The translations under genes were made by a program, and so were the position numbers. This document shows positions 1 to 20,955 of a DNA stretch of 64,000 nt, one piece after another; position 1 is the stretch's first letter, and every line of letters begins with the position of its first letter. The stretch covers positions 1-64,000 of the forward strand of contig OZ220696.1 in the NCBI GenBank assembly GCA_965116495.1, read 5' to 3'. Source of the DNA: Gammaproteobacteria bacterium. Lineage in GTDB: Bacteria > Pseudomonadota > Gammaproteobacteria > Eutrophobiales > Eutrophobiaceae. Below the pieces are notes generated by a model, which was given only the letters and a program-made list of their open reading frames with translations, searched no databases and had not been told where the DNA came from.

Positions 1-2056
1 TCCACTTGTGGAAGGCACTGCCAGTATCTCCCTGAAAGCGGCGAAGTTGATTAGTCAGAAAATGTCTGAGGAGATGATGAATCAACCTGATGCTGTAGAG
101 GCCGTCGCTGAAGAACATAATGACTTTATCAATCCCTTTACGCGCACACGGGAAGGCAAGCTGTTGCCATACCTACCTTACTATGGTGAGTTGTTTCAGG
201 ATGGGAGACACATCATACCGGGAGACAGGAGGCCTGAGGACAGGGATGATGATTTGAAGTTTTTCGGAGGTGTTACCAACCCGACGGTGCATATCGCGTT
301 GAACCAAATCAGGCAAGTAGTGAACGAGTTGATTGATCGTTACGGTCATCCTTACTCCGTGGCTGTTGAACTGGGGAGAAATTTACCGGCTGGACAGGAA
401 GAACGCCGCGAAATCGAGAATGCTCAAAAGAAAAATCAGGAAGAGAATGAGCGACTGGATAACATCCTTCGTGAAACCGGACAAATACCTAATCGTGACA
501 ATCGGTTGCGTTTACTTCTATGGGAAGAACTGGATACAAAAGATCCTGCTGGCCGTTGCTGTCCCTTCTCAGGGGAAATAATCGGCATTACCGATTTGTT
601 CAACGGCAGGGCTGAAATTGAACATTTGATACCGTTCAGCGTTTCTCTGGATGACAGCAGAGCCAATAAAGTGCTTTGTACCAGGCAGGCCAATCGCGAC
701 AAAGGTAGCAGGACGCCGTTTGCAGCATTCGGAGACAGCCGGGATGGTTATACCTGGGAGGATATTGCCGCACGAGCACAACGCCTGCCTAAACCGAAAC
801 AATGGCGCTTCCAGGAGGATGCCTTGGAAATCTGGTATCGGGACTGTGCAGATTTCTCTGAGCGCCACTTGAATGATACGCGCTATATCGGACGATTAAC
901 CAAGGAGTACCTTGAGAGTATCTGTCCGTTCAATAAGATTGACGTCATAACAGGACGTCTTACTGCCCTGTTGCGCGGTCATTGGGGATTAAACGGCATT
1001 TACCGGAATCACAACGCTGCCGGGGACGAGCCGAAAAATAAATCCCGCGATGATCATCGTCACCATGCCGTTGACGCCATTGTGGTCGGTATGACAACGC
1101 GTTCGATGTTGCAGAAAGTTGCAACGGCGGCCGGTCGGGCGGAAGAATTGAACCTTGAACGCCTGTTTGAGAAAAAGAATAATGGCAGGTCTCCAATTGA
1201 ACCATGGGGCAGTTTTCGTGATGAGGTTGCTGAGGTCACACAAAGCATCACGGTATCGCATAAGCCACGAAGAAAAAAGCTGGTGCCTGGCACAACTACG
1301 ACTGACGGACAGTTACACAATGACACGGCCTATGGGATAATTTCCGGCCCGGATAAAAACGGTCTCTGTGAAGTTGTCGTGCGCTGGCCGGTCACCAAGT
1401 TCAAGAAAAGGAAAGACCTGGAAGATAAGGAGCAGGGTGTCCGTGACCCGCGTTTGAGGCTGGAGTTTTTGCAAGCCTTCGATAAGGCAGTGAATTGCGG
1501 CGAAGATGGAAGCAAAGCCATTATTAATCTTGCCGAAAAGAAAGGGATTCGGAGCCTTCGCCGCACGGAAAAATTAAAAGTCATCCGTGTCAAAGATCAA
1601 TTGGGCAATGTCTATAAAGCTTATAAGGGAGACAGTAATTGGGGGATGGAGATTTATCAGTATCCGAATACCCATAAAAAATCCGATAAGTGGGAAGGCG
1701 TTGTAATTTCCCGCTTTGATGCGAACCAGCCGGGCTTCATGCCGGGTGAAAGCCATAAACCCCATCCGGCTGCCCGGTTGATCATGCGTTTGCAAAGGGA
1801 CGACTGCATTGAGATTGAGAATGGGAATAAAAAACAAATTATGCGTTTACAACTAATGAGTCAGAATGGACAATTAGTATTAGCTCCGTTGCATGAGGCT
1901 AATGTCGATGCCAGAGACCGCGACAAAGATGATCCTTTCAAGTACGTGCGAAAACAGGCCAATGCACTTAAATCTGTGAATGCCCGTAAAGTACATATTA
2001 GCCCTACAGGCTTGGTAAATTATGAAAATCGCCCAAAACCTGATGATAATCAATAG
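1..2056 (+). CDS. cas9: Type II-C CRISPR-associated endonuclease Cas9, 5'-truncated by the window edge
   Basis: RuvC-II (VAVELGR), HNH (EIEHLIPFSVSLDDSRANKVLC..NRDK), RHLNDTRY, RuvC-III (DDHRHHAVDAIVV); directly followed by cas1 and cas2 with no csn2 or cas4. Confidence 0.97.
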   Translation, partial: PLVEGTASISLKAAKLISQKMSEEMMNQPDAVEAVAEEHNDFINPFTRTREGKLLPYLPYYGELFQDGRHIIPGDRRPEDRDDDLKFFGGVTNPTVHIALNQIRQVVNELIDRYGHPYSVAVELGRNLPAGQEERREIENAQKKNQEENERLDNILRETGQIPNRDNRLRLLLWEELDTKDPAGRCCPFSGEIIGITDLFNGRAEIEHLIPFSVSLDDSRANKVLCTRQANRDKGSRTPFAAFGDSRDGYTWEDIAARAQRLPKPKQWRFQEDALEIWYRDCADFSERHLNDTRYIGRLTKEYLESICPFNKIDVITGRLTALLRGHWGLNGIYRNHNAAGDEPKNKSRDDHRHHAVDAIVVGMTTRSMLQKVATAAGRAEELNLERLFEKKNNGRSPIEPWGSFRDEVAEVTQSITVSHKPRRKKLVPGTTTTDGQLHNDTAYGIISGPDKNGLCEVVVRWPVTKFKKRKDLEDKEQGVRDPRLRLEFLQAFDKAVNCGEDGSKAIINLAEKKGIRSLRRTEKLKVIRVKDQLGNVYKAYKGDSNWGMEIYQYPNTHKKSDKWEGVVISRFDANQPGFMPGESHKPHPAARLIMRLQRDDCIEIENGNKKQIMRLQLMSQNGQLVLAPLHEANVDARDRDKDDPFKYVRKQANALKSVNARKVHISPTGLVNYENRPKPDDNQ

Positions 2057-2059
2057 GTC

Positions 2060-2971
2060 TTGATGAGGGGGCAGGTTGTTGAAATTACCCAGCCCGGTTA
2101 CGCGCTCAACAAGTCACGCGGCTTTTTGGAAGTAAGACACGAGTGGGAACCGATAGGGCAGGTCTCGCTTGATGACATTGCCGCCGTAATAATTTCTGTT
2201 CCGGGGTGCTTGATTTCAAGCGTTCTGATAGACCATCTTTGCAGACAGAACATACCGCTTGTGATATGCGGCAAGAATTACATGCCTACCAGTATCACTT
2301 TACCGCTTGAGGGATATGGACGGCAATTTCATGTAATGCGGTCTCAAGTCAAGCTATCAGAACCGCGCCGCAAACGAGCATGGCAGCATATTGTCAGAGC
2401 CAAAATAAAAAACCAGGCTGAAGTGCTGGTCCGCGCAGGTGAAAATAATCAGCATTTACTGCGTCTTGCCGACAAAACTAAGTCGGGCGACAAGGATAAC
2501 TGTGAAGCGCAGGCTTCACGGTTCTATTGGCCACGGCTGCTCGGTGAAGATTTCCGTCGCAATCAGGATGCACCCGGCATTAATGCGGTGCTGAATTATA
2601 TTTATGCGATAGTCCGCGCTTGCGTTGCTCGTGGTATCAGCAGCGCAGGATTACACCCGAGTTTCAGTCTGCACCACAAAAATCCACAAAACCCGCTCAA
2701 TTTGGTTGATGACCTAATGGAACCGTTCCGACCCATCGCCGATTATATGTTATGGCATAGCGGGGTAGAACAATTTGATGAACTGTCACCCGGAACGAAA
2801 AAACAATTGGCAGCAATTACGACTCTTGTGATTCCCCTTGGTGAGGATGCTTCACCATTATCTTTGGCGGCAAGCAGAATGGCTAGATCTTTCGCAACAT
2901 ACTGTCTCGGAGAAGCAGATACATTTTTGTGTCCAGGTTTGCCTTATCCTATTGATATGCCAGTGTTATAA
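2060..2971 (+). CDS. cas1: Type II CRISPR-associated integrase Cas1
   Basis: DNCEAQASRFYW, INAVLNYIYAIVR, LHH..NPLNLVDDLMEPFRP motifs; position between cas9 and cas2. Confidence 0.96.
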   Translation: MMRGQVVEITQPGYALNKSRGFLEVRHEWEPIGQVSLDDIAAVIISVPGCLISSVLIDHLCRQNIPLVICGKNYMPTSITLPLEGYGRQFHVMRSQVKLSEPRRKRAWQHIVRAKIKNQAEVLVRAGENNQHLLRLADKTKSGDKDNCEAQASRFYWPRLLGEDFRRNQDAPGINAVLNYIYAIVRACVARGISSAGLHPSFSLHHKNPQNPLNLVDDLMEPFRPIADYMLWHSGVEQFDELSPGTKKQLAAITTLVIPLGEDASPLSLAASRMARSFATYCLGEADTFLCPGLPYPIDMPVL

Positions 2972-3309
2972 TGCGGCACATACCGCTCAGCCCCTACCGC
3001 ATAATGTGGCTATTTGTTATGTTCGATCTGCCTGTGGGTACGAAGAAGGAAAGAAAGCAGGCTACGGCTTTCCGTAGCCACCTGTTGGACCTTGGGTTTG
3101 AAATGTCACAATTTTCAGTTTATCTCAAATACTGTATTTCCGGTGAGAAGGCTGAATCAGTCGGAAACCAGATTCAGCGCGAGTTACCTCCTGGCGGAAA
3201 AGTCGATATTCTTACGATCACTGACAAGCAATTTATGAATATGCGCCGATTTTATGCCAAAGCGCAAATAAAAAATGATGGGAAACTTCCTCAATTACGC
3301 CTGTTTTGA
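2971..3309 (+). CDS. cas2: CRISPR-associated Cas2
   Basis: YRIMWLFVMFDLPV...GFEMSQFSVY...ITDKQF; start overlaps the cas1 stop (TAATG). Confidence 0.96.
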   Translation: MRHIPLSPYRIMWLFVMFDLPVGTKKERKQATAFRSHLLDLGFEMSQFSVYLKYCISGEKAESVGNQIQRELPPGGKVDILTITDKQFMNMRRFYAKAQIKNDGKLPQLRLF

Positions 3310-3344
3310 TATATTTTTCCCGCCAGAGACGGGAAAAATATATC
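3308..3344. terminator. Perfect 15-bp stem hairpin between cas2 and the array; probable terminator for cas and/or convergent crRNA transcripts
   Basis: GATATATTTTTCCCG-ccagaga-CGGGAAAAATATATC. Confidence 0.6.
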
Positions 3345-3348
3345 GTCA

Positions 3349-3361
3349 AAACAACAAGTTG
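3349..3361 (+). promoter_or_regulatory. IHF-like site in the short CRISPR leader
   Basis: AAACAA-CAAG-TTG versus consensus WATCAANNNNTTR (1 mismatch), ending 10 bp before repeat 1. Confidence 0.4.
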
Positions 3362-3371
3362 GCTCAGCCCT

Positions 3372-4001
3372 ATTCTTGCACTTGGGAATAAGTGGTGCAA
3401 GGACAACGGCAGGCCCACACAGGCGCTTAGAGCGGCTATTCTTGCACTTGGGAATAAGTGGTGCAAGGACAACGTTGATGCTGGACAGGTCGAGCGTGTC
3501 GGAATTCTTGCACTTGGGAATAAGTGGTGCAAGGACAACTGATACGGCGATCACTTGCAATAGCCTTCGATTCTTGCACTTGGGAATAAGTGGTGCAAGG
3601 ACAACGTCAGCGTGTCACTATTTGGGTGTTATTCTATTCTTGCACTTGGGAATAAGTGGTGCAAGGACAACTCATACAGCTTGTCCATGGCCGCGTCCCG
3701 CATTCTTGCACTTGGGAATAAGTGGTGCAAGGACAACTCTTCGATGGTCTCCATCGCGGCCTCCATAATTCTTGCACTTGGGAATAAGTGGTGCAAGGAC
3801 AACATGAGCGACATCGCCAATACTGTGATATCCATTCTTGCACTTGGGAATAAGTGGTGCAAGGACAACCAGTCGGGCTTGGACGCGCAGGCCGGGTGCA
3901 TTCTTGCACTTGGGAATAAGTGGTGCAAGGACAACCAAGGCGCGGTCTGCACAAACTGGCAAATGATTCTTGCACTTGGGAATAAGTGGTGCAAGGACAA
4001 C
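3372..4001 (-). CRISPR. Type II-C CRISPR array: 10 identical 36-bp repeats and 9 spacers of 30 bp
   Basis: Repeat ATTCTTGCACTTGGGAATAAGTGGTGCAAGGACAAC at 3372, 3438, 3504, 3570, 3636, 3702, 3768, 3834, 3900 and 3966 (66-bp period); the minus-strand form begins GTTGT and ends AAT like other II-C repeats (strand is inferred). Confidence 0.99.
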
Positions 4002-4153
4002 CTATCAACTTCAGCAAGGCGTGCCAGAATCTTCTTGTCCCACTCTTCGGCAGCATTCGCATCGGCAGGCACATTCAAGCTGCTGACCAGGGTATACGCC
4101 AGTTCGGCGCGAGCCGATTCAGGTAGCATTAATACTTGGGAACGAAGCTGGAA
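4002..4153 (-). pseudogene. Fragment of a putative addiction-module antitoxin (TIGR02574-like), cut by the terminal CRISPR repeat
   Basis: Minus-strand translation FQLRSQVLMLPESARAELAYTLVSSLNVPADANAAEEWDKKILARLAEVDR resembles the family pattern LP..ERAELA..L..SL...D..A...W..EI.RR...; no C-terminus present. Confidence 0.7.
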
Positions 4154-5398: not shown

Positions 5399-9250
<3,852 letters not shown>

Positions 9251-9598: not shown

Positions 9599-10317
9599 CC
9601 GGTGAGTCGAATTTCTGGGCAGTTATCCCGGCGGGTGGCAGCGGCCGGCGTATGGCAGCGGACAGGCCCAAGCAATACCTGAAGCTGTTGCAGCGGACTG
9701 TTCTCGAACACAGCCTGCTGCCTTTTTGCGAGCATCCGCTGATCAGGGGTATTGCCGTCGTTGTGGCGGATGATGATGAATACTGGCCGACCCTGGCAGT
9801 GTCCGGTCATGCCAGGATCATTACGGCGTCCGGCGGCGTGGAACGCTGTCATTCCGTGTTGAACGGTCTCAGGCGCATCGGGGAAATTGCCGGTGACAAT
9901 GACTGGGTGCTGGTGCACGATGCGGCCAGGCCCTGTGTAACGGCAGCCGACATCGACCGGCTCATTGCCGGACTCAGGTCTCATCCCGTAGGCGGTATCC
10001 TGGCACTGCCGGTCAGGGATACGGTGAAACAGGCAGGGCAGGATCATGAAATCCAGGCGACGCTTGAGCGTGAACGGTTGTGGCGGGCTCTGACACCGCA
10101 GATGTTCCGGCTGGGCCTGTTGCGGAAAGCGATTGCCCTGGCCGTAGCCGACGACCTGCTTGTTACGGATGAAGCCCAGGCCCTGGAATACAGGGGTTAC
10201 CGGCCGGGAATAGTGCAGGGCGGTCCTCACAATATCAAGGTATCCTTGACGGAGGACCTGGCCCTGGCAGAATTTTATTTGACAAGATATTTGAACCCAG
10301 GCCGGGGACAGAACTAA
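9595..10317 (+). CDS. ispD: MEP cytidylyltransferase
   Basis: IPAGGSGRRM..PKQYL, VLVHDAARP, TPQMF, TDEA. Confidence 0.97.
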   Translation: MTGESNFWAVIPAGGSGRRMAADRPKQYLKLLQRTVLEHSLLPFCEHPLIRGIAVVVADDDEYWPTLAVSGHARIITASGGVERCHSVLNGLRRIGEIAGDNDWVLVHDAARPCVTAADIDRLIAGLRSHPVGGILALPVRDTVKQAGQDHEIQATLERERLWRALTPQMFRLGLLRKAIALAVADDLLVTDEAQALEYRGYRPGIVQGGPHNIKVSLTEDLALAEFYLTRYLNPGRGQN

Positions 10318-10326
10318 TTCTGTCCC
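10305..10326. repeat. GGGACAG-type REP-like palindrome (copy 1), overlapping the ispD stop
   Basis: GGGACAGAA-CTAA-TTCTGTCCC; related copies at 20160 and 54552. Confidence 0.7.
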
Positions 10327-10353
10327 TTAAATTTTTTATCGAGGCAGAAAACA

Positions 10354-10821
10354 GTGAGAATTGGCCACGGTTACGATACCCACCGGTTTGTGGGCGGGCG
10401 TCCGCTGATGCTGGGCGGCGTCAACGTGCCCCATGACAAGGGCCTGCTGGCGCACTCCGATGGCGATGTTGTTATCCACGCGTTATGCGATGCCTTGCTG
10501 GGCGCCGCCGCGCTGGGCGACATCGGCGCGCATTTCCCGGATACCAGCAAGGATTTTGAAGACATTGACAGCAGGATACTGTTGCGGCAGGTACGTGCAC
10601 TGCTGGCGCAAAAAGCTTTTACGCTGGTCAATGCCGACATCACCATCATCGCGGAAGCACCCAGGATGGCTCCCCATATCGGCACCATGAGAGACAACCT
10701 CGCCGCCGACCTGGCCGTGGCCGGAGACGCCATTAACATTAAGGCGACCACCAATGAGAAAATGGGCCATCTCGGCCAGCGGGAAGGCATCGCCGTTCAT
10801 GCCGTCGTACTGATCGGATAA
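10354..10821 (+). CDS. ispF: MECDP synthase
   Basis: [31 protein letters not shown]. Confidence 0.98.
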
Positions 10822-10920
10822 GAAACACACTTCGCAATGAAATTACCCGGCGTGATTTTCCCGGCGGGGTGTTTGCCGGTTCCGGCATGGCGGGCTATGC
10901 AGCTATTGTTCTGATGTAGT

Positions 10921-10933
10921 TGTAACAGTTACA
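10921..10933. promoter_or_regulatory. Candidate repressor operator upstream of TonB-dependent receptor 1
   Basis: Perfect 6-1-6 palindrome TGTAAC-A-GTTACA about 40 bp upstream of the start. Confidence 0.35.
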
Positions 10934-10973
10934 CTTGCCGTGACCACTATGCCACTTCATGGGAGAACGACAA

Positions 10974-13361
10974 ATGTTCGATGCGGTCCGTACCAAGTCG
11001 GTTGCATTCCTGGCAATTGCCATTGCTGTACAGGGACCCCGGATATTTGCCGAAGAGCCTGATGACCACGCCCACGACCGAGCCGGTCATGAACACACCG
11101 AGACCGACCATGACCACACTTATACACCGGCCAGCCGGGTGCTTGCAAAGCCCGGCCATGAACATACTCCGGCCGGATATGAGCATATAGAGGAGATTGT
11201 CGTTACTGCCGATCCGTTGGGCGACGTCGATTCCCACCTCATGATGCCTGTCCAGGTGCTCGGCAGAGACGAATTGACGACCCGGAGTATCCGGAATATC
11301 GGTGAAGCGGTTGCCAATGAACTGGGTGTAACCACCAGTGATTTCGGCACCGCCGTAGGACGACCCGTGATCCGCGGTCTGGCCGGTAGCCGGGTCGCCG
11401 TGCTCGAAAACGGCACAAGCACGATGGACGTGTCGAATATCGGCGCTGACCATGCAGTTCCCACAGAACCGGCATTTGCGCGCCAGGTTGAAATTTTTCG
11501 CGGTCCCGCAACCCTGCTGTTCGGCAGTGGAGCCAGCGGCGGCGTGGTCAACGTCGTAAACGACCGCATCCTCAAGTATATCCCGGACACCCTGGAGGGT
11601 GATATATCACTGCAATACGAAACCGTTTCAGACGGTGTGAACGGCGCCGGCAGCTTCAATTTCAGTACGGGTGATTTTGCCGTCCACCTGGATGGCATGA
11701 AGCGCTATACAAAGGATTATAAAATTCCCGGATACGCCGAGTTGAACAGGGACCCCGGGGATGAAATGGAGAAAGGCGTCCTGGAAAACAGCAGTATTGA
11801 ATCGGAAAGTGTCGCCATGGGGGTATCCTGGATCGGTGAACGCGGGTTCGTCGGTTTTTCCGTGAGCCGGTTTGACAGCGACTACGGCATTGTGGGTGGC
11901 CACCATCATGGTGAAGAAGATCTGTTTGAGGAAATGGACCTTCATATGGAAGATGACCATCATGATGATGAAGAGCATCATGATGATGAAGAGCATCACG
12001 AAGATGAAGAGGACCACGAGGGCGAAGACGGCCATGATGACGAAGACGGCCATGATGACGAGGGCGGCCACGATGACGAGGACGGCCATGGTCATGGTGA
12101 AGAAGGTCATGCAGAGGAAGGCGAATCCCGGATAGACATGGGAGTAACCCGTTACGACTTTGAAGCGTCGTTATACGATCCTGTCGGTGCCATACACCGG
12201 ATCAAGACTCGTTGGACTTTTACCGACTACACCCACCATGAAATAGAAGGAAACGGCGATATCGCGGTAACGTTCTTGAATGAGGAGGTGGGAGGCCGCG
12301 TCGAGTTTGTACATCATCCCCTGGGAGGCTGGCAGGGAGCTTTCGGTATCCAGTATCACTACAAGGATTTTTCCGCGTCAGGGGAAGAGGAATTTGTCCC
12401 GCCTTCGGAACTGGAATCCGTTGCTGCGTTCCTGCTGGAAAAAAACGACTTCGGCAAGTGGCATACTGAATTCAGCGCCAGGTACGAACACCAGGAAACC
12501 AGCTCTGAAACCGGTCAGGAAACAGGCCATGACCTGTTCAGCCTGTCCGGTGGTTTGAACTGGAGCTATCACGAGGGCTATGAACTGGGTCTGATCGTTA
12601 CTCATGCCCAACGCGCCCCATCCCTGGAAGAATTATATTCGGCCGGCCCCCATCTCGCGACAGTCACGTTTGAATACGGCGATGCCGAACTGGGCAAGGA
12701 AAAGTCAACCAATTTTGATCTCTACTGGCGCAAGACGACAGGCACGCTTACGCTGACCGCCAATTTATTCTATAACCGGATCAGTGATTTCATATTCCTG
12801 AAAGAACAGGACCTGAACGGGGATGGTATCGCGGACTGGGTGCGTGATGACTTTGCCGGCGACCCTGCAGACATCCTGCAACCCGGGGTGGACGGCACGC
12901 ATTTACTTGTAGCGCAAGTGCAGGAAAAAGTGGATTTCATGGGTTTTGAAGTGGAAGGTGTCGTACATGCCCTGCATGGTGACTACGGCGCCATGGACGT
13001 GCGCCTGTGGGCGGACTATGTTGAAGGTGAGCGTAGCGATAATGTCAACCTGCCACGCATAACCCCCTGGCGTTACGGCGCTGGCATGACATATTTTCGC
13101 GGCCCCTGGTATGCGGCAGTGAACTACACCCGTGTGAATAAACAGAATGACACCGCTCCGTTCGAAACCTCTACCAGGGGCTACGATGACCTGAACCTTT
13201 ATGCCAGCTATCGCATCAGTCATGCCGGCAATGACGTCACCCTGTTTGCCAGCGCCAGCAACCTGCTGGATGAAGAAATACGCCGTCATACTTCTTTTGT
13301 AAAACACCTGGCGCCAATGCCGGGACGTTCGGGCATTTTCGGCGTTCGCGTTTCATTTTAG
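10974..13361 (+). CDS. ZnuD-like TonB-dependent receptor 1 with a His-rich N-terminus and a ~73-aa His/acidic insert
   Basis: Signal peptide, TonB box (EEIVVTA), plug motifs RPVIRGL and VEIFRGPATLLFGSGASGGVVN, C-terminal RVSF; SD GGAGA supports the start at 10974. Confidence 0.9.
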   Translation: MFDAVRTKSVAFLAIAIAVQGPRIFAEEPDDHAHDRAGHEHTETDHDHTYTPASRVLAKPGHEHTPAGYEHIEEIVVTADPLGDVDSHLMMPVQVLGRDELTTRSIRNIGEAVANELGVTTSDFGTAVGRPVIRGLAGSRVAVLENGTSTMDVSNIGADHAVPTEPAFARQVEIFRGPATLLFGSGASGGVVNVVNDRILKYIPDTLEGDISLQYETVSDGVNGAGSFNFSTGDFAVHLDGMKRYTKDYKIPGYAELNRDPGDEMEKGVLENSSIESESVAMGVSWIGERGFVGFSVSRFDSDYGIVGGHHHGEEDLFEEMDLHMEDDHHDDEEHHDDEEHHEDEEDHEGEDGHDDEDGHDDEGGHDDEDGHGHGEEGHAEEGESRIDMGVTRYDFEASLYDPVGAIHRIKTRWTFTDYTHHEIEGNGDIAVTFLNEEVGGRVEFVHHPLGGWQGAFGIQYHYKDFSASGEEEFVPPSELESVAAFLLEKNDFGKWHTEFSARYEHQETSSETGQETGHDLFSLSGGLNWSYHEGYELGLIVTHAQRAPSLEELYSAGPHLATVTFEYGDAELGKEKSTNFDLYWRKTTGTLTLTANLFYNRISDFIFLKEQDLNGDGIADWVRDDFAGDPADILQPGVDGTHLLVAQVQEKVDFMGFEVEGVVHALHGDYGAMDVRLWADYVEGERSDNVNLPRITPWRYGAGMTYFRGPWYAAVNYTRVNKQNDTAPFETSTRGYDDLNLYASYRISHAGNDVTLFASASNLLDEEIRRHTSFVKHLAPMPGRSGIFGVRVSF

Positions 13362-13367
13362 GGAGTA

Positions 13368-13479
13368 AATTTGGGACACCCATAAATTGGGTTTGTGGGT
13401 GTCCTGAATTAGCTGCTCGTCCCCAATTCATGGGTGTCCCAAATTAACATTTAGTCCCAATTTATGGGTGTCCCAAATT
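13368..13479. repeat. 112-bp REP/MITE-like element bounded by perfect 24-bp inverted repeats, with two extra internal copies
   Basis: AATTTGGGACACCCATAAATTGGG (13368-13391) versus its reverse complement at 13456-13479; near-copies at 13422-13445 and 13392-13410. Confidence 0.8.
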
Positions 13480-13538
13480 AGCTTTTGTCGAGAGCAGGTG
13501 TTATTCTGGCCTCGTTCCCGGAGAGGTAGATTATTATC

Positions 13539-14384
13539 ATGTCATTGTTCGAACTCAAGGTTGTTGCAGCATTGGCGATCCTCGCGGTGGGTGTCGTCGG
13601 CGGGGTAATACCGCTCCTGGCGGCCCGGCACGATACAAGCCGCAGGTTTCTCTCTCTCGGCAATGCCCTGGCGGGTGGCATCTTTCTCGGTGCCGGGTTC
13701 ATTCACCTGTTGCCCGAAGCAGGCGAGGCCCTGGAGGGCGTGGTCGATTATCCTCTTGCACCGCTGCTGGCGGCCATCGGCGTAGTCGCGCTACTGCTCA
13801 TAGACCGGGTCCTGTTCGAAACCAGTCACGGGGTGGAATCAGGTGAAGACGGAGATGCGCGCCAGCCGATCTATCCCCTGGTACTGCTGGTGGTTTTGTC
13901 GATCCACTCAGTCATCGCCGGCATCGCCCTCGGGGTCGAGTCGGAACTGGCCGCTTCCCTGCTGGTTATGATCGCTATCCTGTCCCATAAAGGTTCGGCC
14001 GCCTTCGCCCTCATGGTCAGCGTGCAGGCTGCCGGCGCCGACCGCAGACGCCTGAGGCGGGTCCTGACTATCTTTGTGGTCATGACGCCGCTGGGTATCA
14101 TGCTCGGTGCGCTGGCCTCCGGCATCTTTGAAGGAGATGCCGCACTGCTGGTAGAAGGCAGTTTCAACGCACTGGCCGCAGGCACCTTTATCTACGTGGC
14201 TATCCTGGACGTCATCGATGCGGAAATGTCCAGGACCGACGATCGTGTTGCGCATTTCGTACGCAGTTCCCTGCTCGGGGAAGACGATGTGCCCATGCCT
14301 GAGAAGGATACTGACCGCATAGCCAAATTTGTCTTGATATTCGCCGGCCTGATGAGTATGGCCGTACTGGCCCTCTGGGTTTAA
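13539..14384 (+). CDS. ZIP-family metal importer
   Basis: GIFLGAGFIHLLPEA, LSIHSVIAGIALG, SHKG, AAGTFIYVA. Confidence 0.9.
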   Translation: MSLFELKVVAALAILAVGVVGGVIPLLAARHDTSRRFLSLGNALAGGIFLGAGFIHLLPEAGEALEGVVDYPLAPLLAAIGVVALLLIDRVLFETSHGVESGEDGDARQPIYPLVLLVVLSIHSVIAGIALGVESELAASLLVMIAILSHKGSAAFALMVSVQAAGADRRRLRRVLTIFVVMTPLGIMLGALASGIFEGDAALLVEGSFNALAAGTFIYVAILDVIDAEMSRTDDRVAHFVRSSLLGEDDVPMPEKDTDRIAKFVLIFAGLMSMAVLALWV

Positions 14385-14407
14385 GGGCTTGATTGGATGG
14401 TAATTAC

Positions 14408-15394
14408 ATGAGTCCTGCACACCACACCGGGTGCAGCCATGACCACCACCATCAAGCCGGTGCCGGACACGACCACTCCCGCGAGTTGCGCAGTGCCGGC
14501 AAGCGCAGCCTGATCGCCGCCTTTGTCCTGATCTCCGGTTTTATGTGGGTCGAGGTTATCGGCGGCATTGTGTCCGGCAGCCTGGCCCTGCTTGCCGATG
14601 CGGGGCACATGCTAACCGATGCGGCATCCATTGCCCTGGCCCTGGCCGCCATGTATTTTGCCGAGAGACCCCACTCCGTGCAACGCACCTTTGGTTATCA
14701 CCGTCTTGAGATTCTGGCTGCCCTGGTGAATGCATTGGCTCTCTGGTTGATTGTGGCCTGGGTGCTTATCGAAGCCTATGACCGCTTTACTTCAGTAACC
14801 GAAGTAAACGGCGGGCTGATGCTGGGCATAGGCGTCATCGGTCTTGCCGTCAACCTCATCGCTGCCTGGATCCTGCGTAGCTCTTCCGATCACAATGTCA
14901 ATGTCGAGGGGGCGTTTCTGCACGTTATCGCGGACTTGCTGGGATCGGTCGGTGTCGTCATTTCAGGTATCCTGATATGGACCCTGGGCTGGACTCTTGC
15001 CGACCCCATAGTCAGCGTGATCATCGCAATTCTTATACTTGTCAGCAGTTGGCGGCTGATGAAGAAGGTCGTTCACGTGCTGCTCGAGGGTACTCCGGAA
15101 CATGTTGACGTATATCAACTTTGCCGCAAACTGGAAGCGGTGGAAGGTGTTACCCTGGTCCATGACATCCATGTCTGGACACTATCTGCCGGCAACGAAG
15201 CACTTACCGCGCATATCCTGATAGATCCGGACTTCCCGGGCGACCCGGAAGACCTGCGCCTGCGTCTGCGGGGCATTATTTACAACGATTTCGGCATCGG
15301 TCACATAACCCTGCAGGTGGAAAAATCACTGGAAGGATGCTCTGAAGACCACCATTTTGATCACTTGGCGACCCCTGTGGGTTCGGCAGACTAA
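14408..15394 (+). CDS. Cation diffusion facilitator (CzcD/ZitB-like) with a His-rich N-terminus
   Basis: SLALLADAGHMLTD, TFGYHRLEIL, AFLHVIADLLGS, VHDIHVW, HITLQVE. Confidence 0.95.
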   Translation: MSPAHHTGCSHDHHHQAGAGHDHSRELRSAGKRSLIAAFVLISGFMWVEVIGGIVSGSLALLADAGHMLTDAASIALALAAMYFAERPHSVQRTFGYHRLEILAALVNALALWLIVAWVLIEAYDRFTSVTEVNGGLMLGIGVIGLAVNLIAAWILRSSSDHNVNVEGAFLHVIADLLGSVGVVISGILIWTLGWTLADPIVSVIIAILILVSSWRLMKKVVHVLLEGTPEHVDVYQLCRKLEAVEGVTLVHDIHVWTLSAGNEALTAHILIDPDFPGDPEDLRLRLRGIIYNDFGIGHITLQVEKSLEGCSEDHHFDHLATPVGSAD

Positions 15395-15416
15395 TCTGCA
15401 CCGTATCCCGTGACCA

Positions 15417-15610
15417 CAGGGCAACCGCATACTTTTGGATTCTGCCGCAAAGGACCGAAATAAGGCAGGAAAAGGCCGTCCGTCATTCCGGCGAATGCCG
15501 GAATCCAGTCAAAAAAATGATTCCTTATGGTAACAGGTTGGTTTGTTCACTGGATTCCGGCATTCGCCGGAATGACGATAGGCCGGATTCAAAAGTATGC
15601 GGTTGCCCTG
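15417..15610. mobile_element. 194-bp MITE-like element with a nested REP pair
   Basis: Terminal inverted repeats CAGGGCAACCGCATACTTTTG (21 bp perfect, 27/30 overall); CCA on both flanks; internal perfect 29-bp inverted pair at 15481-15509 and 15549-15577. Confidence 0.8.
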
Positions 15611-15640
15611 CCAGTGACCACTGGGGTGGTAGTAAACTTC

Positions 15641-15668
15641 TTGACAGTGAGTATTGGTATCCTATAGT
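15641..15668 (+). promoter_or_regulatory. Sigma70-type promoter of the leader-peptide/receptor 2 unit
   Basis: TTGACA-16 bp-TATAGT, ending 10 bp before the ATG at 15679. Confidence 0.6.
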
Positions 15669-15678
15669 CTTTGTTCAT

Positions 15679-15966
15679 ATGTCAGTCAGGTATAAACAGT
15701 TTACAGGTTGGTTTCTTGCTGCCCTGATCCTTTGCGGACAGTCGGTTGCGCTTGCCCACGAATCCGGCCATGATCTCAAGCTCACGGACGAGTATTGTGT
15801 TCAATGCCTGACACAGTCCGTATTTGACGACAACGCAGTTGTCCCGGTATCTGAATTTACCGTCCTGTCTTCTGCCGGCAATGTCCGGGTACTGGATGAA
15901 GGCAGATATCATTCCACTTATTCACGCACTAATTCCGCACGCGCCCCTCCTGTATCTCCCACATAA
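15679..15966 (+). CDS. DUF2946/CruR/CutF-like leader peptide (signal peptide, HxxxH, CxxC, C-terminal RAPP arrest motif)
   Basis: MSVRYKQFTGWFLAALILCGQSVALAHESGH...YCVQC...NSARAPPVSPT; directly upstream of a TonB-dependent receptor. Confidence 0.85.
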   Translation: MSVRYKQFTGWFLAALILCGQSVALAHESGHDLKLTDEYCVQCLTQSVFDDNAVVPVSEFTVLSSAGNVRVLDEGRYHSTYSRTNSARAPPVSPT

Positions 15967-16034
15967 CGTTTCAAGTCTGTTTATCCGGATAACGCGCCGC
16001 GTTATTCCCGAATTGGTTATGAGGAGGTATGGGA
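15948..16034 (+). promoter_or_regulatory. Predicted mRNA structure sequestering the SD and start codon of receptor 2
   Basis: 15948-15959 and 15962-15967 pair with 16023-16034 and 16016-16021 (18 bp including 3 G-U); inner hairpin 15987-16007. Confidence 0.7.
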
Positions 16035-18971
16035 ATGTACTGGTACAACCTGAAATTTATCGTCCTGTTGACTGCCGTTACGGGCATTCATGGGACGTTC
16101 GCGCTTGCCGATGAGCCGGCCGATCACGCCCACACGCAAGAAGTCGGCGAACACGCGCCTGCCGGTGGTGAGAGTATCGAGGAGATCAAGGTCACTGCCG
16201 ACCCGTTATCCGAGGTCGATGCCCATATAATCAGACCTGTCCAGGTCCTGTCGAAAGAGGAGCTGAAATCCCGCAGCATCCGCAACGTTGGTGAAACGGT
16301 TGCCAATGAACTGGGTGTCTCGTCCAGTGATTTCGGCACAGGAGTGGGCCGTCCTGTTATCCGGGGGCTGGGCGGCAGCCGCGTGCAGGTGCTGGAAAAT
16401 GGGCTCAGCACTATGGACACAGCTGCTCTCAGCGCTGATCATGGGGTGCCGTTGGAATCGGTGTTTAGCCAGCAGGTTGAGATTTTTCGCGGTCCCGCAA
16501 CGCTGCTGTTCGGCAGCGGCGCAAGCGGCGGCATTGTCAATTATGTGAACGGCCGCATACTGGATTACGTGCCTGACGACGTGGAAGCCGAGGTAGCCTT
16601 GCAATATGAAACGGTCTCGGACGGTATGACCGGCGCCGGCAGCATGAACTTCGGCGCAGGTAAGTTTGCCTTCCACATAGACGGAATGGCGCGCAATACC
16701 GGCGATTACAATATACCGGGATTTGGCGAACTGGAGCCGGGCGAGTCCCGGCGCGGCGTCCTGGAGAACAGCAGTATTGATACGGAGAATATATCGGGAG
16801 GCTTGTCCTGGATCGGGCGGCGCGGATTTGTCGGGTTTTCCGTCAGCCGCTATGAAAACAACTATGGCATACAGGGACATCACCACCATGGTGATGAGGA
16901 CGGACATCTTCACGGTATGGAAGACATGCATCTTCATGATGATGATGAACATGACCATGATGATGATGAACATCATGACGATGAGGACGATGAACACGAC
17001 CATGATGAAGAAGAGGGACATCATGACGATGAGGACGATGAACACGACCATGATGAAGAAGAGGGACATCATGATGATGAGGACGAGCATCACGACGAGG
17101 AAGAGGGACATCATGATGATGAGGACGAGCATCACGACGAGGAAGAGGGACATCATGACGATGAAGAAGAGCATCACGACGAGGAAGAGGAACATCATGA
17201 CGATGAGGAAGAGCATCACGACGAGGAAGAGGGACATCATGACGATGAAGAAGAGCATCACGACGAGGAAGAGGACCATCATGACGATGAGGAAGAGCAT
17301 CACGATGATGAAGACATGGACCATCATGACGATGAGGAAGAGCATCACGATGACGAAGACATGGACCATCATGACGATGAGGACGAGCATCACGATGATG
17401 AAGACATGGACCATCATGACGATGGGGAAGAGCATCACGATGATGAAGACATGGACCATCATGACGATGAGGACGAGCATCACGACGATGAAAACGGACA
17501 CCATGACGATGAGGACGAGCATCACGATGATGAAGACATGGACCATCATGATGATGAGGACGAACATCATGACGATGAAAACGGGCATCATGACGATGAG
17601 GAGGAGGGACACGACCATGATGAGGAAGACGGGCATCATGATGATGAGGACGATGAACACGACCATGATGAGGAAGACGGGCATCATGATGATGAGGACG
17701 ATGAACACGACCATGATGAGGAGGAAGAAGGTGGTGTACGCATCGACATGAGACAGACCCGTTACGATTTTGCCGCGGCCCTGGATGATCCGTTCCCCGG
17801 TCTGAGCCGCATCAAGATGCGCTGGGGTTTCAATGACTATAAACACGATGAAATCGAACCGAGTGGAGAGGTGGCCACAGCCTTTGACAATGAGGAGGTG
17901 GAAGGCCGCGTGGAGTTCGTCCATAACCCCATCGGCGCCTGGAACGGCGTTGTCGGCTTCCATTACCGTCACAAGGACTTCGCGGCTGTAGGCGCGGAGA
18001 GCTTTGTCCTGCCGTCGGAACTGGAGTCGGTCGGGGTATTCATCCTGGAACGGACCGATATCGGACAATGGCATATTGACCTGGGCGCAAGGTTTGAACA
18101 CCAGGACACGAGCGCAGAGACGGGTGCTGAAAACGATTACGACCTGTTCAGCGCCTCCGGCGGTTTAAACTGGGATTATGCCCCGGGCTACCAGGTCGGC
18201 CTTTCCGTGAGCCATGCCGAGAGAGCGCCGTCGATTGAAGAGTTGTATGCGCTGGGTCCACACCTGGCGACCGCGACGTTTGAGGTCGGTGATACCAACC
18301 TGGCTAAGGAAAAGTCCAATAACGTTGATATCTACTGGCGTAAAACGACGGGTAAATTCACTTTTACAGCCAACTTCTTCTATAACCGGATTGATGATTA
18401 CGTCTACAAGCAGGAACAGGACCTGAACGGGGACGGTTTCGCCGACCGGGTGGCGGAAAATTTTGACGGCAACCCGGCAAATATCCTGGACCCGGATGAC
18501 GACGAGGAACCCTTACTGGTTTACCTGAGTCAGGACGATGCGGAATTTCTGGGATTTGAAGCGGAAACCAGGGTGCGGCTTATTGATAATGACCGCGACA
18601 GGATGAATTTGCGTTTATGGGGAGACTACGTGGAAGGTGAGCGCAGCAACGGTATCGACCTGCCGCGTATCACACCCTGGCGCTTCGGTTCCGGTCTTAC
18701 CTACTCCCGCGGGGCCATGTCTGCATCCGTCAACTATACCCGCGTGAATGAACAGGACAATACCGCGCCGCTGGAGACGGAGACAGGCGGCTATCACCTG
18801 CTGGATATCCATGCCGATTACACGTTCAGGCTGGGCGGCAACACGGTATCACTGTTTGCCCGTGCTTCCAACCTGCTGGATGAAGAGATACGCCGGCATA
18901 TCTCTTTCGTGAAAGAGCAGGCGCCGCTGCCGGGGCGTTCCGGCATATTCGGCCTGCGTTTGTCGTACTAG
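16029..18971 (+). CDS. ZnuD-like TonB-dependent receptor 2 with a ~284-aa His/Asp/Glu repeat insert
   Basis: Signal peptide, EEIKVTA, RPVIRGLGG, VEIFRGPATLLFGSGASGG, C-terminal RLSY; paralogue of 10974-13361. Confidence 0.92.
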   Translation: MGMYWYNLKFIVLLTAVTGIHGTFALADEPADHAHTQEVGEHAPAGGESIEEIKVTADPLSEVDAHIIRPVQVLSKEELKSRSIRNVGETVANELGVSSSDFGTGVGRPVIRGLGGSRVQVLENGLSTMDTAALSADHGVPLESVFSQQVEIFRGPATLLFGSGASGGIVNYVNGRILDYVPDDVEAEVALQYETVSDGMTGAGSMNFGAGKFAFHIDGMARNTGDYNIPGFGELEPGESRRGVLENSSIDTENISGGLSWIGRRGFVGFSVSRYENNYGIQGHHHHGDEDGHLHGMEDMHLHDDDEHDHDDDEHHDDEDDEHDHDEEEGHHDDEDDEHDHDEEEGHHDDEDEHHDEEEGHHDDEDEHHDEEEGHHDDEEEHHDEEEEHHDDEEEHHDEEEGHHDDEEEHHDEEEDHHDDEEEHHDDEDMDHHDDEEEHHDDEDMDHHDDEDEHHDDEDMDHHDDGEEHHDDEDMDHHDDEDEHHDDENGHHDDEDEHHDDEDMDHHDDEDEHHDDENGHHDDEEEGHDHDEEDGHHDDEDDEHDHDEEDGHHDDEDDEHDHDEEEEGGVRIDMRQTRYDFAAALDDPFPGLSRIKMRWGFNDYKHDEIEPSGEVATAFDNEEVEGRVEFVHNPIGAWNGVVGFHYRHKDFAAVGAESFVLPSELESVGVFILERTDIGQWHIDLGARFEHQDTSAETGAENDYDLFSASGGLNWDYAPGYQVGLSVSHAERAPSIEELYALGPHLATATFEVGDTNLAKEKSNNVDIYWRKTTGKFTFTANFFYNRIDDYVYKQEQDLNGDGFADRVAENFDGNPANILDPDDDEEPLLVYLSQDDAEFLGFEAETRVRLIDNDRDRMNLRLWGDYVEGERSNGIDLPRITPWRFGSGLTYSRGAMSASVNYTRVNEQDNTAPLETETGGYHLLDIHADYTFRLGGNTVSLFARASNLLDEEIRRHISFVKEQAPLPGRSGIFGLRLSY
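16878..17729 (+). repeat. In-frame tandem repeat array encoding HH+acidic units of 7-9 aa
   Basis: Exact 48-bp duplication (16971-17018 and 17019-17066) and exact 42-bp duplication (17067-17108 and 17109-17150), plus many variants. Confidence 0.97.
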
Positions 18972-18983
18972 GAATTATCCGGC

Positions 18984-19502
18984 TTATTTATCCGGGAAGA
19001 GCGGGTCAGGAAGGTCATAGAATTCAATTTCTACGCTTTTCTGGCCCCCCCGGCGGGCGTCGACTTCCTGGATATTGGAATCAGGCGGCTCTTTAAATTC
19101 TCCCAGTTGCTGCATGCCTTTATTCAGTTTTGATTTTGCCGCGATCACTGTTTCATGGAGGTCCGCGGAATAAGCCAGTTTAAAAGACCTGGGCTGGGTC
19201 CGCCCCGACAGATCATCCAGGTCTTTGAGCCACAGGTAAATCATTCCCTCAGCGCCTGTCGATTTATCCGGTTGTACTATGTCCGCGCCGATCAGGCGAA
19301 AGCGTTCCGGCGGTTGTTCCCCGGTCGGCCAGCCAAGCAACGGGGGAAAGGACAGGTAAGTCACAACGTACAGGAGTGCAGTCACGATTATGGAACCGGC
19401 CTTGACTTTCCAGGACCAGTTTGAATACAGGTTGATACTCAACAGCAGCAATGCTATCAGGACGTAGGCGGCGACCAGCCCCGTTATTCCCAGTACATAC
19501 AT
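18984..19502 (-). CDS. Uncharacterised membrane protein (2 N-terminal TMs plus a soluble domain); last gene of the MotA-like module
   Basis: 172-aa ORF with SD (AGAGGAG) and a hydrophobic N-terminus; co-oriented with the module. Confidence 0.75.
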   Translation of the reverse strand: MYVLGITGLVAAYVLIALLLLSINLYSNWSWKVKAGSIIVTALLYVVTYLSFPPLLGWPTGEQPPERFRLIGADIVQPDKSTGAEGMIYLWLKDLDDLSGRTQPRSFKLAYSADLHETVIAAKSKLNKGMQQLGEFKEPPDSNIQEVDARRGGQKSVEIEFYDLPDPLFPDK

Positions 19503-19537
19503 GATAATTCTCCTCTGTGCCCTCTATTATTTTTTCT

Positions 19538-20131
19538 CTATCCGATAGAGACCAGTTGTTTGGGTAAAAAGTTGATATTTGATATTTTTCCATCGATGTT
19601 GATGCGAAACCGGAAAGCCGTTTTTTCATCTCCCGCCTTTTTCAGGGTGACCGTGTCGTAATAGACAATTTCCAGGGCAGGGTTGACTTTCACCAGACGC
19701 ACCTGTACATCGACGGGCCTGTCGGTTTCAGTGGCATAATAATGCAGGTTGACGATGTACTCGCCTTTTACGACGCCCCGGATCGTTACTACTTCCTGGT
19801 TGAGGGGATTTTGCAGCTCTTCACCATTAACCACAATCGTATCGTTGATCAATCCCCTGTCATCACGGTCCAGGTGCAGCAGCCCGGCTTCCGGGTTGCG
19901 GAACCAGATCACCCTGCCGTCGGGGTCTTCCACCCAGACGTCAATGTCATCGGGGCTGTCATCTTCCCAGGTAACGGTAAGGATATATTCTGCCTTGGGG
20001 TCGATGATTCCTGACTTGGCCTCGGGGTTCATGAACATGATTGCCACGAGGAACAGAAATGTAAAACCCAGTAGTGCATTGAACAGCAAGTCCGTGAATG
20101 GGTCCGACTGGTAGCGTCTGTAGTTGTTCAC
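19538..20131 (-). CDS. ExbD/MotB-like single-TM protein with a YfaP/DUF2135-like periplasmic domain
   Basis: DPFTDLLFNALLGFTFLFLVAI helix with Asp; TW...DIDVWVEDP...LDRDD pattern. Confidence 0.65.
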   Translation of the reverse strand: MNNYRRYQSDPFTDLLFNALLGFTFLFLVAIMFMNPEAKSGIIDPKAEYILTVTWEDDSPDDIDVWVEDPDGRVIWFRNPEAGLLHLDRDDRGLINDTIVVNGEELQNPLNQEVVTIRGVVKGEYIVNLHYYATETDRPVDVQVRLVKVNPALEIVYYDTVTLKKAGDEKTAFRFRINIDGKISNINFLPKQLVSIG

Positions 20132-20159
20132 GGGAGGACTTCAGCCACACGAAGCTATC

Positions 20160-20183
20160 GGGGACAGATTTAAATCTGTCCCC
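20160..20183. repeat. GGGGACAG-type REP-like palindrome (copy 2)
   Basis: Perfect 24-bp palindrome GGGGACAGATTTAAATCTGTCCCC. Confidence 0.8.
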
Positions 20184-20211
20184 TTTTTCCGCTGTGGCAA
20201 CGTTAAATGGA

Positions 20212-20955
20212 TCATAACCTGGGTAGGATATGGACCTGGGTCAGGTGTTTCGTGCCGTCAACAAGTTCATCGGCAGCCTGGTCCAGTAGATGCAACTGGG
20301 CCGCCGTCAATATACTGCATACGAGTCCGGCAAACGTCGTATACAGGGCTGTGCCCATGCCTGAACTCATCTGTTTCAGAATGTTCTGCATGGTAGTGAC
20401 GTCAAAATCAGTCACGTTCACCACGGAACCGAGCATGAGTACAAAACCGATAATCGTACCCAGCAGGCCCAGTTTGATCATGATATCCGTAAAGAACCAG
20501 CCCAGGTTATGGGGGTTCTTGAGTCTTGCTTCAAAAACTTCGATCAGTTCCTGGTTGTTTGTCTTAACCGGGTTATTGTCAGACTGCACGTCTCCCGGAG
20601 GTGCCGACTTTGACTGGTAAAACAAGTCCAGCAGGTAACGCGTCAACAGGCAGTCGGGGAGTCGTTCTGTGTTATCCATATAGATATCACCGTCCCTGAC
20701 TGAAAGTTCATGGCGCCGGACCAGCGTATTTACCTTCTCGGAGATATTCAGTTCACGGGAGATAAACCAGACCCGGCGGGCACAATAAATTGTGATAATT
20801 ACAAACAGCAAGGTGATGACCCAGGATAATTTACTGTTATCACCCAGGTACAGCAACAGGAGCACCTTCTCGTGCAGGGCTATGAACAGTGCGAAACTGA
20901 TCAGGCTGATCAGCATCAACCACACCAGCAATAAATGATGTTCGCCTTTTTTCAT
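20212..20955 (-). CDS. MotA/TolQ/ExbB proton-channel family protein
   Basis: LGLLGTIIGF...MSSGMGTALYTTFAGL C-terminal TM pair. Confidence 0.88.
   Translation of the reverse strand: MKKGEHHLLLVWLMLISLISFALFIALHEKVLLLLYLGDNSKLSWVITLLFVIITIYCARRVWFISRELNISEKVNTLVRRHELSVRDGDIYMDNTERLPDCLLTRYLLDLFYQSKSAPPGDVQSDNNPVKTNNQELIEVFEARLKNPHNLGWFFTDIMIKLGLLGTIIGFVLMLGSVVNVTDFDVTTMQNILKQMSSGMGTALYTTFAGLVCSILTAAQLHLLDQAADELVDGTKHLTQVHILPRL

Follow-up and report, generated by a model that had tools for sequence, protein, structure and literature searches.

The window analysed here comprises 64,000 nucleotides of a gammaproteobacterial genome (assembly GCA_965116495.1; contig OZ220696.1, positions 1 to 64,000, forward strand). 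Its main subject is a gene for a TonB-dependent receptor (16035..18971, plus strand) that resembles the neisserial zinc receptor ZnuD and that carries, at 16878..17729 on the same strand, a long repeat encoding almost exclusively histidine, aspartate and glutamate. A small leader open reading frame (ORF; 15679..15966, plus strand) precedes the receptor gene. The repeat reads in frame within an ORF at 16029-18971 (+) and corresponds to residues 284-567 of protein P0001, which is numbered from the ATG at 16029. The likely start is the ATG at 16035, seven bases past the ribosome-binding site at 16021-16027, and the database version of the receptor (P0347) has 978 residues.

The tract consists of 284 residues (D100, E81, H78, G14, M7, L2 and N2), of which 91% are His, Asp or Glu, and it is devoid of Cys, Lys and Arg. 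Its 78 His are grouped into 38 clusters (29 HH, 8 HxH and one HHHH) with a spacing of 7-9 residues. The original prediction, made from the letters alone, had described just such a run of about 284 residues in an outer-membrane transporter, with about 78 His arranged nearly all as HH or HxH pairs every 7-9 residues. It had also reported exact 48-bp and 42-bp duplications, and these were recovered among 13 exact DNA repeats of at least 30 bp, which include pairs of 66 bp (17609/17657), 59 bp (17058/17100) and 57 bp (16970/17018). Further offsets were 45, 84, 87, 90, 126, 132, 135 and 222 bp, and the units measure 21-27 bp, with higher-order repeats above them. In phase-variable simple-sequence-repeat loci, the reading frame shifts when a short unit is gained or lost; no such unit was found in the tract, where all offsets are multiples of three. 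The claim that the frame is always kept is therefore true of the receptor gene, but it does not extend to every relative: a frame change within the repeat breaks up some of the database homologues (P0345/P0348, P0370, P0388 and P0057). Two shadow ORFs that run across the repeat (631 residues on the minus strand and 342 on the plus strand) were read as by-products of it.

The genome (4.34 Mb, 99.5% complete) is a single contig with no N. Among its 19,460 stop-to-stop ORFs of at least 80 residues, comparable tracts occur in only two, the receptor gene and its paralogue, which argues that the tract is not a product of chance. Of 177 merged tandem arrays in the genome the 45 longest were compared, and within these no other array with a period below 60 bp is as long as the tract. 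In a separate part of the genome (G000:C1:1160249-1160391), an Asp/Asn/Gly/His-rich 54-bp repeat was noticed within an open frame of 864 residues.

Could the length of the tract be an assembly artefact? Simulation of a de Bruijn graph on the window sequence predicted where contigs built from 31-mers should break, and the contigs of public sequencing runs end at these points. Stretches predicted to be present in two copies had 1.85-1.93 times the flank depth and single-copy stretches 0.89-1.12 times (16 of 44 pieces; ratios computed by hand), while region 17378-17513 had little or no cover and was uninformative. As these runs are possibly, and not certainly, the source sample, and no contig piece in them crosses the whole repeat, the total length is supported rather than measured. 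The absence of a crossing contig, together with the homologues that are frameshifted or gapped inside the repeat, is what speaks for an artefact; the unbroken contig, the divergence of the repeat units from one another, the agreement of piece ends and depths with the assembled copy numbers, and the occurrence of loops of at least 200 residues, built of different units, in 22 of 58 rows of the receptor's clade all speak against it, and we consider it extremely improbable. A 592-base skip in one contig of run X4 (depth 3.6, with a 27-base side) was discarded as a likely repeat artefact, and two RNA runs (X19 and X20) contained less than 0.1 of the sequence words.

The identity of the receptor is indicated by Pfam (Plug and TonB barrel domains), NCBIfam, PDB and a structural model. 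ZnuD (4RDR, E=1e-76) was the only PDB sequence match at E<=1e-10, and the first four Foldseek matches were ZnuD entries (E between 1e-42 and 1e-45, followed by 3e-27) at about 21% structural identity. The copper transporter OprC was much more distant in the fold search (E about 1e-26, 11% identity). In an AlphaFold2 model built from a 63-sequence alignment (predicted template modelling score, pTM, 0.69), a plug and 22 barrel strands, counted from the model, can be seen, and the insert lies between strand 5 (266-280) and strand 6 (571-586). It also aligns with the loop-3 segment of ZnuD, and the strand count and this alignment together rule out a periplasmic placement. The predicted local distance difference test score (pLDDT) is below 50 over residues 285-567. 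The insert is thus predicted to be extracellular loop 3 and disordered, as the original prediction had proposed.

The link to ZnuD, which had also been suggested beforehand, extends to the metal site. The buried zinc ligands of ZnuD are D99, H100, E340 and H499 (PMC4557270), and alignment to 4RDR, whose chain numbering equals the mature numbering plus 14 as counted by hand, places their counterparts at Asp137-His138 (16437..16442), Glu608 (17850..17852) and His745 (18261..18263), all on the plus strand. All four are conserved in the receptor, and they are kept in 144 of 146 mapped distant representatives. Loop 3 of ZnuD spans approximately residues 233-309 and contains two His/Asp/Glu clusters (PMC4557270, PMC2895646), one of which binds cadmium in the crystal while the other gathers zinc in simulation (PMC4557270).

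The repeats themselves carry a record of selection. In 20 genes of the genus with N-free loops of at least 85 residues, 3,139 of 3,656 loop residues were His, Asp or Glu, with one Lys, four Arg and one Tyr, and the His fraction stayed at about 27% across different repeat units. Among 124 distinct pairs of neighbouring units from these genes, 116 synonymous transitions were counted (H 25/232, D 50/347 and E 41/246.5 opportunities), whereas H>Y (0/232), H>R (0/232) and E>K (0/246.5) were never seen; this disparity is the reason why we regard the composition as selected. Other changes were D>N 2/347, D>G 7/347 and E>G 11/246.5. Exchange between Asp and Glu was frequent (64 events in a non-deduplicated count), and only five H/D exchanges occurred. 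As judged from these sequence counts, the H/D/E composition is under purifying selection, although its cause may only be suggested. Loss of mismatch repair as a driver of repeat expansion was ruled out, since the genome encodes both MutS and MutL.

Loop length was compared across relatives at several distances. In 146 mappable members of a set of 149 further 50%-identity representatives, loop 3 has a median of 25 and a maximum of 74 residues, so that the loop of 284 residues represents an approximately tenfold expansion. Strong matches to the receptor (E<1e-60) were found in 21 of 22 genomes of the same genus. A FastTree phylogeny was calculated from 124 loop-free cores (116 of them different) of P0001-P0100 and the genus proteins; rows lacking both anchors or with cores below 560 residues were left out, and some rows represent one gene from two sources. 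In this tree the long loops are held by one 58-row clade (SH-like support 100), in which they range from 58 to 314 residues (median 183). Loops of at least 100 residues occur in 47 of the 58 rows, in contrast to 2 of 66 outside, and none of those 66 reaches the 200 residues mentioned above. Cluster members reach 337, 348 and 382 residues, the last with 102 His and located on a 4.7-Mb contig, which gives an overall range of 58-382 residues for the clade of this genus and its near kin. Within the receptor gene's own 90% cluster the lengths are 203, 219, 223, 264 and 290 residues. The variability of the loop among relatives, which had been anticipated, was therefore found. A search with the loop region gave no loop of at least 100 residues outside near kin (69 further matches, median 44, maximum 70, among 7,988 candidates listed, with a sensitivity weakened by low-complexity scoring). 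Judged by the sequences compared, the long single loop is confined to one clade.

Relatives with a loop of 13 residues still carry all four ligands, and several genomes contain two paralogues that differ in loop length. Some short or split records are possibly assembly faults (P0010 and P0011 on 4-kb contigs, and two loci with N gaps). In a 98% complete genome (G015:C3:3113-5334), a ZnuD-like gene lies in many short cross-frame pieces, as a pseudogene or through sequence error. The paralogous ZnuD-like receptor of the window (10959..13361, +) has a tract at the same site (about 11898-12122) of 75 residues with 17 His, close to the earlier count of about 73 residues.

The leader encodes 95 residues from an ATG at 15679, with a hydrophobic N-terminus, a His motif, CVQC (15796-15807), a spacer of 44 residues and RAPP (15940-15951). 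Upstream of it lies a promoter-like TTGACA-16-TATAGT (15641..15668, +; 11 of 12 match), which is the best of seven consensus matches, a total equal to that expected by chance. The leader is the first gene ahead of a metal-transport gene, and 29 homologues were found in 20 of 27 loci searched. All 29 have CxxC with a spacer of 43-45 residues, and their C-terminal motif is RAPP in 8 and RSPP in 21; the median ratio of nonsynonymous to synonymous substitution rates (dN/dS) is 0.44 over 351 pairs. By eye, the conserved hydrophobic stretch in their alignment ends in an ALA-type motif. A profile made from the 29 leaders matched only the leader itself in the genome, and no homologue was found ahead of the paralogous receptor at 10959-13361.

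Neither PF11162 (DUF2946) nor PF10795 (DUF2607) of Pfam matched the leader, and no credible Pfam or NCBIfam family was found for it. Its language-model look-alikes in the Atlas, whose cluster names are automatic, are a 'zinc uptake system zinc chaperone' (0.96), DUF2607 (0.95) and a DUF2946-rich cluster (0.94). DUF2607 is ZrgD, which belongs to a zinc-starvation operon of Vibrio (PMC9817125). CruR is an arrest leader that senses copper and precedes a TonB-dependent receptor gene (PMC9426467). Receptors of this kind are widely preceded by RAPP leaders, with arrest demonstrated for CruR and RSPP partly permissive for it (PMC12992588); the layout of the copper type is described in PMC12914433.

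An RNA stem (15948..16034, +) with an inner hairpin at 15987-16007 is predicted to form between the tail of the leader (15948-15967) and the ribosome-binding site of the receptor (16016-16034). Pairing between tail and downstream ribosome-binding site was predicted in 24 of 25 testable loci; four of the 29 leaders had no start in range, and two of the 25 scored used a doubtful start. In an alignment of 20 loci, 91% of the cells are paired, and both partners have changed in 8 of 23 pairs, where shuffled alignments gave 2.5; the structure had been derived from the same 20 sequences.

Other loci show the leader in different company. In L036 (975-6201), the same leader type stands at the head of an island that encodes a CbiM-type transporter, an ABC ATPase, a CobW/COG0523 GTPase and a WD40 protein; behind it come two leader-receptor pairs. 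In L047 (10292-14407, minus strand), a leader, a siderophore-type TonB-dependent receptor and PepSY_TM reproduce the layout of the copper-regulated cruR-crtA operon and directly precede a leader with a His-loop receptor. In L048, the long-loop receptor gene of G014 is immediately followed by a second leader (about 7584-7865, minus strand).

Two further metal-transport genes sit between the two receptors and recur near receptors in relatives: a ZIP-family transporter (13539..14384, +; Pfam Zip, E=6.5e-43), the likely inner-membrane partner, and a CDF (ZitB-like) cation efflux protein (14393..15394, +; Pfam and NCBIfam). ZnuA was not found in this genome and is present in 2 of 23 genomes of the genus. 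Zur was not found either, as the single Fur-family match in this 99.5% complete genome scores as Fur; a second Fur-family gene occurs in 3 of the 23. In a scan with the Zur-box consensus, no Zur box within 10300-19300 appeared among the first 40, in genome order, of 131 loose genome matches. The leader, the ZIP and CDF neighbours and the apparent lack of Zur and ZnuA do not figure in the original prediction. One genus member (G010) has a ZnuA (L057:1384-2670) with an insert of about 130 residues of Pro/Ala 5-mers, and the loop of its ZnuD-like receptor has 33 residues; in-frame expansions thus recur in the genus.

Beside the receptor, on the minus strand at 18984-20955, an ExbB/TolQ-like gene and two unannotated membrane-protein ORFs form a group conserved in many loci of the genus, which is possibly an energising module. 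A non-coding tandem repeat with units of 16-17 bp (13396-13483) separates the first receptor from the ZIP gene. A CRISPR-Cas9 locus, likely of type II-C, occupies 8-4002, with the C-terminal part of Cas9 (RuvC_III and HNH; 8-2056), cas1 (2060-2971) and a repeat array of about 10 copies with a 66-bp period (3370-4002). Regarding lifestyle, the repeat proteins of the genome resemble, by eye, ankyrin, Sel1 and RTX types. Named relatives are labelled APA_bin_93 and RHO3_bin_19, and a genome of the APA_bin series has been assigned to a sponge (PMC11706023). Given this label and the types of repeat proteins, a sponge-associated life of the bacterium is likely.

Taken together, these data suggest that the receptor is probably a ZnuD-like TonB-dependent importer, likely for zinc, whose predicted disordered loop would serve as a weak multi-site collector feeding the four-ligand site. 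The approximately 38 His pairs with their flanking carboxylates would act as metal collector and short-term store, from which ions would move to D137/H138/E608/H745 before TonB opens the plug. Since ZnuA was not found, the metal is proposed to enter the cytoplasm through the neighbouring ZIP protein. Loop length would change by slippage and by unequal exchange of units of 21-48 bp, and selection would keep the frame, the H/D/E make-up and, in one clade, a long loop, with exact length only loosely constrained. When metal is scarce, ribosomes may stall at the RAPP of the leader and so loosen the stem over the receptor's ribosome-binding site; once the CxxC and His of the leader bind metal, the stall would end and the receptor would be turned off, a control that would replace Zur.

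Simple physical estimates bear on how such a loop could work. The local concentration of His within the coil is roughly 50-160 mM. Enlarging the capture radius from 2 to 4.5 nm only about doubles the diffusion limit, and the Debye length at seawater salt is 0.36 nm. The idea of a surface polyanion that concentrates metal, as originally proposed, therefore stands with respect to the predicted disordered surface loop, but capture by charge alone would be weak. With charge screened and the gain from diffusion small, coordination by His is a more plausible basis than charge; by the same estimates, the loop could equally well be a store or competitive sink as a means of faster capture, and its exact length would not have to be tuned.

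Several observations weigh against the reading of the loop as a collector and the leader as its switch. The return on length in the diffusion estimate is small for a loop that adds about 40% more residues. The best NCBIfam family of the receptor, NF038289 (ZnuD), scored 439.5 bits against a cut-off of 950 (the short-loop paralogue scored 432.4). In the substitution counts, related genes share events, the receptor gene alone yields too few changes (9 synonymous and 4 E>G), and the loss of Lys, Arg and Tyr could reflect selection for solubility or export instead of metal binding. P0008 and P0014 have loops of 257 and 189 residues, a gap of 68, on cores without an aligned difference, and clade members on Mb-scale contigs span 63-314 residues; both comparisons indicate that loop length is not tightly held. 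As for the switch, a control slid by +1 gave 7 double-change pairs, the folding z-score of the stem is only -1.95, and with a stalled ribosome masked, opening the site still costs 11.1 kcal/mol (20.1 kcal/mol otherwise), so that the site is not freed. Finally, the tested model for the leader is the copper sensor CruR (PMC9426467), and the CbiM/CobW island and the siderophore-type receptor with PepSY_TM are headed by homologous leaders too.

These last points lead to a different metal. The loop might be the same collector but serve mainly Cu, Ni or Co, or it might buffer a toxic excess at the surface. The leader shares the CxxC, spacer and RAPP of copper-sensing CruR, its homologues precede the CbiM-type transporter with CobW (L036) and the receptor with PepSY_TM (L047), a CDF exporter adjoins, and poly-His has a higher affinity for Cu and Ni than for Zn. 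Nevertheless, the ZnuD zinc site is intact and OprC is a much remoter match, Cys is absent from the loop and Met accounts for 7 of its 284 residues, the best Atlas clusters of the leader are zinc-linked, and a ZIP gene adjoins as well, which makes this alternative unlikely in our estimation. Alternatively, the loop might be an acidic spacer or shield, self-expanding and tolerated, that guards against phage, proteases, cationic peptides or host cells, and the first His cluster alone would matter for uptake. The wide scatter of lengths on near-identical cores, the retention of the ligands in relatives with 13-residue loops and the Pro/Ala repeat in the ZnuA of a genus member would fit, as would reports that loop 3 covers the ZnuD pocket (PMC4557270) and binds a host protein in TdfJ (PMC9426574). 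An acidic shield as such would not need His, and hence the steady His fraction of about 27%, the absence of H>Y and H>R and the scarcity of H/D exchanges count against it, as do the presence of MutS and MutL and of no other such tract in the genome besides that of the paralogue; we find it quite unlikely.

The original prediction had added that repeat number might be a tunable and possibly length-variable trait. In a fuller form of this idea, repeat number would be a selected dial, with length tuned to the metal supply of the host or niche and varying within populations. Rapid change by whole units on near-identical cores (203 to 290 residues), paralogues of different length within one genome, and the contrast between one clade that stayed long and kin that stayed short can be cited in its favour. 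Yet drift would yield equal scatter, and some of the short values may be collapsed assemblies (P0010, P0011 and the two N-gapped loci); tuned length appears to us very unlikely. A broader proposal joins the collector to control: the symbiont lineage may have replaced Zur and ZnuABC by a single module, consisting of a zinc-sensing arrest leader that unmasks the ribosome-binding site, a metal-sponge receptor with a loop of 60-380 residues matched to host supply, and ZIP. We put this forward tentatively, as doubtful but worth stating; if true, the arrest peptide would be one that responds to zinc, and the loops would form a natural series of lengths in which to see whether His-rich loops raise uptake at trace levels.

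The collector reading gains its interest from the fact that the 'fishing net' role of ZnuD rests on cadmium crystals and simulation (PMC4557270). The clade described here is a natural titration, with near-identical barrels whose loops run from about 60 to 380 residues and contain as many as 102 His, so that capture, storage and dispensability can be put directly to the test. The receptor also gives a measure of the size of disordered acidic insert that an outer-membrane barrel can apparently bear, and the leader points to zinc control by translation arrest where Zur and ZnuA were not found.

Among known systems, the closest are ZnuD and TdfJ of Neisseria (4RDR, 4RDT, 4RVW; PMC4557270, PMC2895646, PMC9426574), which share with the receptor the plug and 22-strand barrel, the four ligands and a loop 3 rich in His, Asp and Glu. 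The loop of ZnuD, however, is about 77 residues long, contains a helix and two cysteines besides its two short clusters, and is highly conserved between strains, whereas that of the receptor is a Cys-free tandem repeat of 284 residues and variable length; the cysteine pair and the basic S100A7-binding residues of the helix are absent from it (no Cys, Lys or Arg). ZnuD is under Zur control, and in this genome Zur and ZnuA were not found. With a score below the family cut-off, no Zur found in the genome and a loop 3 that lacks the cysteine and helix features, the receptor is filed as ZnuD-like and not as ZnuD. The leader resembles CruR/DUF2946 of Bordetella pertussis (PMC9426467) in being a small ORF with CxxC, a spacer of about 45 residues and RAPP before a TonB-dependent receptor, and perhaps also in an export-signal-like N-terminus. 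CruR senses copper and acts through Rho-dependent termination, in contrast to the stem predicted here over the ribosome-binding site of a zinc-type receptor, and by its sequence the leader is similar in motif but is not assigned to the CruR family. ZrgD/DUF2607 (PMC9817125) is likewise a small gene of a zinc-uptake operon (look-alike score 0.95), but PF10795 does not match the leader and the ZrgD operon is Zur-controlled.

The solute-binding proteins ZnuA and AztC have His/acid loops much shorter than that of the receptor. These flexible loops lie beside a high-affinity zinc site and are taken as a mark of zinc specificity (PMC7463823), in soluble periplasmic proteins as opposed to the outer-membrane barrel considered here. 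A published account of giant His loops in ZnuD-like receptors, or of such proteins in sponge symbionts, was not found in a literature that mostly excluded subscription papers. His/acid loops beside zinc sites are thus already known from ZnuD, ZnuA and AztC; new are the size of the single loop, its confinement to one clade, the test for selection on its composition and the apparent absence of Zur and ZnuA.

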